Shown: piece by piece, positions 3,198 through 4,499 of the stretch
Numbering within the stretch: the stretch's first letter is position 1
Layout: each line of letters opens with the position of its first letter
Source of the DNA: Psammoneis japonica
Taxonomy: Eukaryota
Direction: 5' to 3'
DNA length: 64,000 nucleotides
NCBI GenBank assembly: GCA_008632985.1
Contig: QPGO01000120.1
Location: forward strand, 124,001-188,000
Notes under the pieces: generated by a model
What the model was told of the DNA's origin: nothing
What the model saw: the letters and a program-made list of their open reading frames with translations, nothing else
The model's database searches: none
Made by a program: the position numbers and the translations under genes

Positions 3198-4499
3198 TCA
3201 AAACACAAAAACACGATGACACAAAGTGCAACAAAAGTGGTGCTGCTGTTTTTTTTGCTGATTGAAACTCACCGTTGGCGCCCTTGACCGCATCGCGTTG
3301 GCTTGTTCTGCAGTGGTGGCCAAGGCTGTCACGGACGTTTTGGGAAAGAATGGCCAAAACTCAAAAATGGGGTCTTGGTCGTCTTCGCTTGCAAGACAAT
3401 TCCATTCGTTTCCCTCGGCAACGCACTTCAACAACTCCGCAAGGCACTCCCAGCGACCAACGTTTCGAACCACGGCAACATCGGCCCCACAACGAGAAGC
3501 CCACTGGGCGCCCAAGCATCGAATGCTGTGGGACGTGTGTGGCAGTCCCAGTGGGCCACAAATGCATTCCCTGAGCTGCTTGTTCCAAGTCTGAGTTGAA
3601 ACGGTAAAAAATGCTGGAGCCTTCACCTTTTTTATTTCGTCTTCACCACGACAACGCCATTCCTTGAGTGTCCATGTCACAGGGTCATGCTTCAAGTTCT
3701 TTGGATTGTGACAAATGCGGACATGGTGAGGATTTCCAATGTTTGTTGGTTTCCCACCCTTCCAATTGTCAAAGCAAACATCCAAGCACCGAGGCGTCCC
3801 ATCCTTCAGCCAATTCGCAGTTGATGACGTAGGAGGTAGAGTGGTCTTGGATGCCAAGGGACAGTGTTCAGAAACATCTGATGCACGTCCAATGATGGAC
3901 AGCTGACCAAGCAGCCTTGACCAAATTCGAACCTTTCTCGTGTGGGAAAGGCCTGGTGTGCATCTCCAGAGCTGATCCCAAGCCATGGGCAGAAAAATCT
4001 CGGGATCAAAAGATTCGGCACGAGAAACATCATCTGCCTCTTCATGTGATTCCAACAGCTTTTTAATCTCAGCTGTGCGATTCAAACCCTTCAAGTGTGA
4101 AAACTCAATTGATGCACACGACAACAAATTGAGCTCGAGTGATGTCGTTCTGTGCTTCAAACTCCTGCCAGCAGGAACCCCGTCTCGCAAGCACTTCACA
4201 CAAGACAGAACAAGGCTTTCTCGGGGAGGCTCCAGCTTCTGCCTCATTGGAACAACCAATGGATTTGTGTGGCATTCCTCCGTCTTCTGAAACAATCCGT
4301 TCAGACATTGCGCGCGCGGATCATTCGGGAATTTCGCCTTCAAAAAGCACTCGAAATTGCTCTGGGTCCCAGCCCGAGCCTCATGCTTCCTGGGCTTGTG
4401 TTGGATGGAGTTCACGCATGCCCTCGTTTCTTGAAATGGAGGGTTTGATGACTCACATGCTTCAAGCTCTGGGCTTGAGTCCTGACTCAAAAATCCCAT
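3198..4499 (-). mobile_element. Tyrosine recombinase (Crypton/DIRS-type) remnant, catalytically inactivated
   Basis: Ordered YR motifs: IIGRASDV (Arg), NWKG (Lys), SHSIR (HxxR), VGRW (Trp), LLKCVAEG where the catalytic Tyr is expected (codon TGC at 3423-3425, minus strand). No RT/RNase H seen next to it. Confidence 0.8.

Follow-up and report, generated by a model that had tools for sequence, protein, structure and literature searches.

The window analysed here, a stretch of 64,000 nt from Psammoneis japonica (contig QPGO01000120.1, positions 124,001 to 188,000), holds on its minus strand an open reading frame (ORF) of 433 amino acids (positions 3198 to 4499) that resembles a tyrosine recombinase. 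Tyrosine recombinases need their catalytic Tyr for the covalent link to DNA. An initial annotation had proposed that a Cys codon stands at this very position, which raises the question of what the gene once was and how its nucleophile was lost while the frame remained open. The results described below indicate that the locus is very probably a dead copy of a small multi-copy element with a Cre-like recombinase, which was hypermutated from TpA to TpG or CpA and in addition carries a stop codon produced by CpG decay.

In a word-based database search, the sole close relative of the ORF was a protein of 534 amino acids, designated P0001 (50% identity, E = 6e-127), and the pairwise alignment likewise gave 50% identity over 416 aligned columns (E = 1e-146). 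The exhaustive HMMER search revealed 343 relatives of P0001 at E <= 1e-3, 146 at E <= 1e-10, and 38 at E <= 1e-30. When the profile of a 27-sequence family alignment was compared with the sequences of the PDB, only Cre and its engineered variants were found at E <= 0.01 (best E = 2.6e-5). The profile segments sHSiRr, vGRW, and llkYvae were aligned on GHSARV, AGGW, and VMNYIRN of Cre, respectively, and the Tyr of the last segment, which is aligned with the nucleophile of the family, is taken here to be the catalytic Y324 of Cre. The Pfam family Phage_integrase (PF00589) was detected in 14 of the 27 aligned members at E <= 0.1 (best 4.6e-7). The AlphaFold model of P0001, which was built from the alignment with a mean predicted local distance difference test (pLDDT) score of 80.3, showed Cre (3crx_A) as its best match by Foldseek (E = 2.7e-7, probability 1.00, 383 columns), the Cre-like fold being that of this 50% identical relative and not of the window protein itself. 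Further fold matches of the model were XerH, Tn1549 Int, lambda Int, XerA, and Flp. Taken together, the profile and the model indicate that the family is a divergent branch of the tyrosine recombinases, the group to which the initial annotation had assigned the ORF. No relative of the family was found among viral contigs, so there is no sign of an origin from a viral integrase. The metagenome scan with P0001 alone as the query returned no relative, and the scan with a 10-sequence alignment returned 24 loci. As a lead only, the neighbours in a protein atlas were eukaryotic clusters, among them one single-record label of Haptophyta and an ALOG/Phage_integrase cluster of Cnidaria.

The residues R, K, H-x-x-R, and H/W that characterise the superfamily are all kept in the window copy. 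Across the 27-sequence alignment, no variation was seen at R325, K366, and R446 (numbering of P0001), and very little at H443 and Y478; in a wider alignment of 152 sequences, which comprises 151 database proteins and the window, the Arg, Lys, His, Arg, and Trp were counted in 118, 119, 111, 114, and 105 sequences, respectively. On the minus strand of the window, the first catalytic Arg is encoded by CGT at 3885 to 3887 within the motif IIGRASDV, and an Asp among the catalytic-type residues is present at 3876 to 3878. The conserved Lys of the motif NWKGG (3759 to 3761) lies in a beta-hairpin of the P0001 model and may be equivalent to the hairpin Lys of Cre; for the first Arg and this Lys, the proposed equivalence to the superfamily residues is derived from their invariance and their position in the model. 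The H-x-x-R box (HSIR, 3519 to 3530, with His at 3528 to 3530 and Arg at 3519 to 3521) was aligned with GHSAR of Cre, and the Trp of the GRW motif (3450 to 3452) replaces the second His, as a Trp also does in Cre. The minus-strand sequence ...VGRWECLAELLK (GRWECLAELLK) is then followed by TGC at 3425 to 3423, so that Cys stands where the Tyr nucleophile is expected. The window copy would accordingly read as a descendant of the recombinase family, yet as no active member of it.

The position of the nucleophile was confirmed by the comparison with P0001, the family column, the Cre alignment, and the related loci. The column contains Tyr in 105 sequences, Cys in three, His in two, Leu in one, Phe in one, and a gap in 40, so that Tyr occupies it in 105 of the 112 sequences with a residue; the Leu and the Phe belong to locally misaligned or frameshifted sequences. 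The family profile puts this column on the Tyr of Cre. The carriers of Cys are the window copy (0 Tyr among 433 residues), P0026 (0 among 222), and P0110 (5 among 312), and those of His are P0103 (0 among 250) and P0135 (0 among 132). Homologues with Cys or His at the nucleophile were thus found only among Tyr-free or Tyr-poor sequences, to which all four of these public database proteins belong. Other subfamilies have thus been struck by the same decay as well; P0026, P0103, and P0135 share just 26-35% identity with P0001 (P0110 was outside this comparison). The catalytic codon could be read in 14 related metagenome loci with the motif, and it was TAC in 13 and TAT in one; about nine of the 14 are independent, as L003, L004, and L006 are near-identical, and likewise L012 to L015. 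Given TAC in the related loci, the change from TAC to TGC is a single A-to-G change at TpA. These comparisons point to the Cys at 3423 to 3425 as a decay product and not a conserved variant.

The same observations bear on the possibility that the locus is a domesticated host gene derived from a recombinase, in which catalysis was lost, DNA binding was kept, and the Cys is tolerated or functional. Such a gene would account for the long frame that is still open and for the retention of R, K, H, R, and W, and genes of Crypton origin without the catalytic Tyr are described by Kojima and Jurka (2011; PMC3212892). It would not account for the loss of every Tyr rather than the catalytic one alone, for an in-frame stop that takes away the N-terminal domain, or for the status of the locus as one of many diverged copies in a block with a TpA observed/expected (o/e) ratio of about 0.1 and other decayed repeats. 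Moreover, Cys or His at the nucleophile is confined to Tyr-depleted sequences and is therefore not conserved, and none of the 27 family members matched DUF3504, the domain derived from CryptonA, at E <= 0.1. Domestication is thus considered very improbable, and the reading as a decayed transposon gene is retained.

The loss of the nucleophile proved to be part of a general loss of Tyr. A recount confirmed that the 433-amino-acid ORF contains no Tyr, and none is present in the extended frame of 569 codons (3198 to 4907, minus strand) either. The median Tyr content of the recombinase family is 3.4%, from which about 15 Tyr are expected in the ORF; the chance of finding none is about 3e-7 by a binomial estimate. 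Among the 24 Tyr of P0001, 22 were aligned to a residue of the window, of which eight are now Cys (six TGC and two TGT), six are His (three CAT and three CAC), eight are other residues, and none is Tyr. The initial annotation had regarded every Tyr codon as a target of a process acting on TpA, and this view agrees with the complete absence of retained Tyr, with the 14 of 22 positions that now read TGY or CAY, and with the TAC codon of the related loci. The losses on the two strands are about equal, with eight Cys against six His.

Consistent with these replacements, the extended frame 3198 to 4907 contains only seven TA dinucleotides, with o/e ratios of 0.07 for TA, 1.47 for TG, 1.43 for CA, and 0.73 for CG. 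The whole window alternates between DNA of host genes, in which the TpA o/e ratio is 0.44-0.63, and blocks in which it falls to 0.01-0.22 with an excess of TG and CA. The block with the recombinase element and other decayed repeats extends from 1 to 10600, and further depleted blocks lie at about 14250 to 17900, 25750 to 32250, 38250 to 41500, 44000 to 49600, 52250 to 53500, and 56000 to 56500. At a resolution of 250 bp the borders are abrupt, with 0-4 TA per bin in the blocks vs 5-25 in host-gene DNA. Both the gene and the sharply bordered blocks have thus lost TpA and gained TpG and CpA. CpG is strongly depleted in most of the TpA-poor blocks (o/e 0.09-0.33) and less so in the recombinase block at 1 to 4000 (o/e 0.83-0.86); this contrast suggests a different age or methylation history.

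Differences between copies of the same sequence provided a second line of evidence. Repeat pairs in other blocks of the window are 71-83% identical, and among their double-mismatch dinucleotides the class of CA vs TG accounted for 71 of 218, whereas the next class reached 10; two of the five pairs share a partner that is duplicated at 99.6% and are not independent, and the CA-vs-TG count without the second of them is 56. Pairs of CA vs TG are expected where one ancestral TA (or CG) was resolved differently after the copies had separated. Among the copies of the recombinase element in the window's own DNA run, 167 of 187 differing places are transitions. Of the 40 differing places that were listed, five set TA against TG or CA and at least 16 set CG against TG or CA when copies are compared; six adjacent TG<->CA pairs are also among them.

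These differences also bear on the possibility that the element already lacked TpA when it arrived, for example from a TpA-avoiding donor, and was not mutated after insertion. Foreign DNA may bring its own dinucleotide bias, and no ancestral sequence is available for this very copy. A working tyrosine recombinase, however, cannot do without its Tyr, and conserved Tyr positions have been replaced by Cys and His, the exact products of one step. In addition, none of the 24 related metagenome loci is depleted in TpA (o/e 0.46-1.18), and among copies from a single DNA run there are differences of TG<->CA and of TA vs TG or CA, which indicates that the changes arose copy by copy. A native bias is accordingly rated as scarcely probable in comparison with hypermutation of the inserted copies.

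The extent of the gene was next defined by comparison with P0001. The tblastn search of the window with P0001 gave a single alignment, which stays in the same frame from 4739 to 3261 and crosses an in-frame TGA at 4503 to 4505 on the minus strand. At this codon, which cuts the gene, P0001 has Arg (G*EMGF vs GREIGF), and in other copies from the same DNA run the plus-strand base at 4505 is changed from A to G, which gives CGA (two contigs, depth 177 of 292.5). When all pairs of sense codons were enumerated, the changes from TA to TG or CA yielded no new stop, and among the changes from CG to TG or CA a stop resulted only from CGA to TGA. The Arg of P0001, the CGA of other copies, and this single CpG route show that the stop at 4503 to 4505 was made by CpG decay and not by the TpA process. 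The claim of the initial annotation that the TpA process can disable an element without creating stops thus holds in principle, as the enumeration shows, although the window copy does carry a TGA, from the other process.

The 433-amino-acid ORF therefore represents the downstream part of a longer gene. It corresponds to the C-terminal four fifths of the decayed tyrosine-recombinase gene, as judged from the ORF list, the homology to P0001, and the family alignment, and it covers the core-binding and catalytic domains. The ATG at 4497 to 4499 (minus strand), which had been taken as the start, is aligned to an Ile of P0001 in both the pairwise alignment and tblastn; it is probably not the original start and would be a former Ile codon, converted from ATA to ATG. 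Upstream of the TGA, the minus strand from 4506 to 4739 continues into an N-terminal domain predicted to consist of a small beta-sheet plus helix, homologous to residues 39-121 of P0001 by tblastn, conserved motifs, and the model. The model has strands at residues 81-113 in this domain, and the N-terminal motifs are conserved in the family alignment. The three-stranded sheet plus helix of this region recalls the arm-binding or AP2-like DNA-binding domains of some integrases. A similarity of residues 65-179 of P0001, the counterpart of 4739 to 4300 in the window, to ribosomal proteins uL6/L9 (E = 0.026-0.5) was also followed and rejected; it was lost with the family profile (E <= 1) and is probably due to chance.

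Openness of the frame was of little value as evidence. Because TAA and TAG are almost gone from the region, many long ORFs are found there, and 39 ORFs of at least 60 amino acids overlap positions 2000 to 6000. It is the homology that marks the frame at 3198 to 4499 as a real one, and the ORF reported initially thus stands as coding sequence but not as the complete gene, its upstream portion being cut off by the TGA.

The kind of element to which the gene belonged was examined through its copies. Positions 2900 to 4971 form the covered part of a multi-copy repeat unit, as judged from word depth and contig ends; its right end lies at about 4967 to 4971 and its left end below 2900. In the window's DNA run, the summed word depth is 288-1177 up to 4971 and 58-64 from 4972 onward, these depths being totals over contigs and not copy numbers. 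Over 2900 to 4971, 281 contig pieces with 85-100% identity were found, of which 197 are below 99%, and four contigs have loose ends behind 4967. Three TpA within 11 nt at 4960 to 4971, at the right end of the unit, were observed in an otherwise TpA-free block; they may mark a junction of two elements or a protected site.

Comparable units were found among the related loci. In six of them (L005, L016, L017, L018, L020, and L021), a related subfamily shares a common unit of about 2.4 kb, flanked by three different sequences on the left and two on the right. This unit starts with ...GCTGGTTTTCCGGG and ends with ...CTCTTATTACTA, and carries only the recombinase, whose frames are broken up, by introns or decay, into two or three segments. 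The terminal 200 bp of the unit share no match above 8 nt, and no long terminal repeat (LTR) or terminal inverted repeat (TIR) was seen. Many contigs with intact relatives have lengths near 3 kb (3042-3194, 3015, 3283, and 3400), and in L009, L010, and L011 the recombinase or its fragment directly adjoins ordinary host genes.

These data were compared with the features of Cryptons, namely a recombinase as the only transposition enzyme, the lack of LTR and TIR, direct repeats of 4-6 bp at the ends, and dispersed copies. The recombinase is the only such enzyme recognised, as no reverse transcriptase (RT) or RNase H was found around the gene, in the related loci, or in the family proteins, with the limit that decayed genes may escape Pfam. 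Specifically, Pfam detected no RT, RNase H, or methyltransferase family in the 66 ORFs of at least 90 amino acids within 1 to 11000, where the only matches were LMF1_C at 10564 to 10905 and two weak chance matches; the RT family was absent from all 62 ORFs of 11 related loci, and the RT domain from the 24 longest family proteins. The 281 contig pieces, the step in depth at 4971/4972, and the three left flanks of the subfamily indicate dispersed copies. The element therefore fits a multi-copy, recombinase-only unit that would work like a Crypton and may belong to that group; this agrees with the stand-alone, Crypton-like recombinase proposed by the initial annotation.

A neighbouring gene raises a different possibility, in which the recombinase belonged to a DIRS- or Ngaro-type retroelement together with a Gag-like ORF at 549 to 2381 (minus strand), the RT lying beyond the left edge or having decayed. 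The Gag-like protein has a CCHC motif and lies 800 bp downstream of the recombinase, with which it shares the strand and the TpA-depleted block; only 548 bp separate it from the end of the window, and an RT could lie off this left edge. Pfam misses the decayed recombinase, and a decayed RT would probably escape it as well. Nevertheless, the arrangement of such retroelements, in which terminal repeats enclose RT and RNase H together with the recombinase, was not found. Neither the Gag-like ORF nor its relative P0152 matched any of the 24 related loci, and the gene was thus rejected as a partner of the recombinase. No RT is present in the ORFs of the 11 loci or the 24 longest family proteins mentioned above, the related unit has no terminal repeats and, at about 2.4 kb, could not accommodate RT plus RNase H, and the contigs with intact relatives cluster near 3 kb. 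The retroelement is hence unlikely, although less so than domestication or native bias, and the CCHC Gag-like gene more likely represents another, independent decayed element that shares the block with the recombinase-only unit. The Gag-like gene itself is decayed, with its reading continued in another frame to about 850 and a frameshift near 1053 to 1071. Its relative P0152 is 38% identical (zf-CCHC, a CCHC zinc knuckle, E = 5.8e-4), and compared with P0152 its Tyr are replaced by Cys and His, as in the recombinase.

A history of the locus can be proposed on this basis. An active recombinase-only element of about 2.4-3 kb would have been inserted, having presumably moved by excision and integration. 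The copy and the inserted DNA nearby would then have been hypermutated from TpA to TpG or CpA, that is, by A-to-G changes on either strand, presumably enzymatically and on the DNA, so that TAY codons for Tyr were rewritten to TGY (Cys) or CAY (His) and the catalytic TAC became TGC. In parallel, CpG decayed to TpG and CpA, as shown by the CGA/TGA codon and by the CG, TG, and CA differences between copies. The outcome is a coding ghost with 433 open codons, all catalytic residues but one, a truncated N-terminus, and an inactive recombinase; without the nucleophile no 3'-phosphotyrosyl link to DNA can form, and DNA can be neither cut nor rejoined. The hypermutation of a recombinase-only element, which need not be copied through RNA, argues for an action on DNA, and RNA editing of a retrotransposon would not explain the decay of an element that has no RNA intermediate.

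Several points weigh against this reading. The Phage_integrase score of P0001 is 12.9 bits against a gathering cut-off of 27.1, and the window ORF itself has no Pfam recombinase match; the profile search for the phage integrase family thus succeeded for relatives and not for the ORF, and the identity as a recombinase is derived from the profile and fold of those relatives. Eight of the 22 aligned Tyr positions are neither Cys nor His, and at 50% identity to P0001 the ancestral state of each site is not fixed. Among the 40 of the 187 differing places that were listed, TAC at 3423 to 3425 was not seen in other copies. The TG<->CA differences between copies can also stem from CpG. The left end of the element was not found in the window, and neither short terminal direct repeats nor TATGG-type ends were recognised in the flanks. 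Finally, that the mutations were made in place and at the DNA level is, for this organism, something that we infer.

The surroundings of the element were also characterised. Host genes in the TpA-normal DNA of the window are intron-poor, with long single exons, a gene structure by which the host differs from Bigelowiella natans; they encode a pyridoxal-phosphate-dependent enzyme of Cys/Met metabolism, a GPN-loop GTPase, an M16 peptidase, a CXC protein, and an XPG/chromodomain nuclease. For the GPN-loop GTPase, the named best matches are all from pennate diatoms (Amphora, Seminavis, Cylindrotheca, Nitzschia, and Phaeodactylum; 52-61% identity). A fragment of a host-type gene with the LMF1_C domain (10564 to 10905, plus strand, E = 3.6e-8) begins at the edge of the depleted block, and the hypermutated state thus ends no more than a few hundred bases away from host coding sequence. 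In the other TpA-depleted blocks, none of 41 ORFs of at least 130 amino acids matched a Pfam family at E <= 0.01. An imperfect repeat array with a commonest spacing of 33 nt occupies 5300 to 6550 inside the recombinase block; several reading frames run through it on either strand, with ORFs of 318 and 343 amino acids, and those of the plus strand show an abundance of Thr, Ser, Ala, and Pro. Tandem copies at 14926 to 16045 and 16047 to 17163, which are 99.6% identical, flank a single N at 16046, and a repeat of 30753 to 31264 at 31088 to 31615 stands beside an N at 30752; both look like artefacts of the assembly caused by scaffolding or haplotype duplication.

In summary, there is nothing unusual about the recombinase copy as such, a dead transposon gene from a divergent, Crypton-like family, and the wider interest lies in the mutation process. 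The copy serves as a readout of an unusual process at the level of codons, with the essential Tyr and all others lost and the frame open. Hypermutated mobile DNA of this kind takes the appearance of long, Tyr-free orphan ORFs that escape domain searches, which makes it a trap for annotation. The evidence is evenly balanced, in our judgement, on whether diatoms possess a genome defence that resembles repeat-induced point mutation (RIP) with the opposite chemistry, namely a TpA-specific A-to-G hypermutation acting on DNA copy by copy. If so, a diatom system would mark inserted mobile DNA with sharp borders at host genes and would erase Tyr codons and TAA/TAG stops while adding no stops of its own, and it would either be common to the supergroup of stramenopiles, alveolates, and Rhizaria (SAR) or have arisen twice. 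Full-text literature searches returned no report of such a TpA process in diatoms. One 2026 preprint, on Bigelowiella natans, is so far the only account of the signature, which is seen here in a diatom-like genome in a more extreme form and joined with CpG decay.

Among known recombinases, Cre of phage P1 (PDB 3crx and 1nzb) is the best match of the family by both profile and fold. The two share the two-domain architecture, the H-x-x-R box, a Trp in place of the second His, and the Tyr nine residues after this Trp. The family differs from Cre in its low identity (14-15% in the structural alignment), its eukaryotic host, its N-terminal extension, and, in the window copy, the Cys at the nucleophile.

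Among mobile elements, the resemblance to Cryptons lies in the lack of RT, in the apparent lack of LTR and TIR, and in the small unit of about 2.4-3 kb. The CryptonS elements of oomycetes and the diatom Phaeodactylum tricornutum, as portrayed by Kojima and Jurka (2011; PMC3212892), are likewise eukaryotic and multi-copy, occur in a stramenopile-type host, and have the recombinase as their sole recognisable gene. The same study attributes to CryptonS a conserved C-terminal region, terminal direct repeats of 5-6 bp, and often TATGG ends (PMC3212892). Measured against this description, the family is alike in the conserved region after the catalytic Tyr (DPI..FW.F) and unlike in that repeats of 5-6 bp and TATGG ends were not recognised. 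It further differs from CryptonS in its additional small N-terminal beta-sheet domain. DIRS and Ngaro elements share a tyrosine recombinase in a eukaryotic mobile element, but the RT/RNase H and the characteristic terminal repeats of those elements were absent from the searches made here and in relatives.

As for the mutation process, RIP of fungi changes C to T, mostly at CpA, and thereby creates TpA and many stop codons. The process described here is similar to RIP in being a transition hypermutation specific to a dinucleotide, confined to repeated or mobile DNA, and inactivating its genes; it is opposite in that TpA is destroyed and no stops are made. The closest parallel is found in mutation-accumulation lines of B. 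natans, for which the preprint reports 231 new mutations from two integrated viral regions, of which 230, all on TpA, were A to G or T to C; Mettrop et al. propose an adenine deaminase, with an ADAT2-like candidate, as a defence (bioRxiv 10.64898/2026.01.13.699255). Compared on these published data, the two cases differ in several respects. B. natans is a chlorarachniophyte (Rhizaria), whereas the host genes here are like those of pennate diatoms; the giant-virus region of B. natans has a Rho(TpA) of 0.45, whereas the depletion of the present blocks is far deeper, reaching 0.01-0.12, and has sharp edges; many of the present blocks are also depleted in CpG, and the target is a transposon and not a virus. 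De novo events were observed in the B. natans lines, whereas the signature here is read from sequence alone. Within the same published data, the two agree in the change of TpA to TpG or CpA, its occurrence on both strands, its confinement to foreign DNA, and the resulting clusters that are poor in TpA and rich in CpA and TpG.

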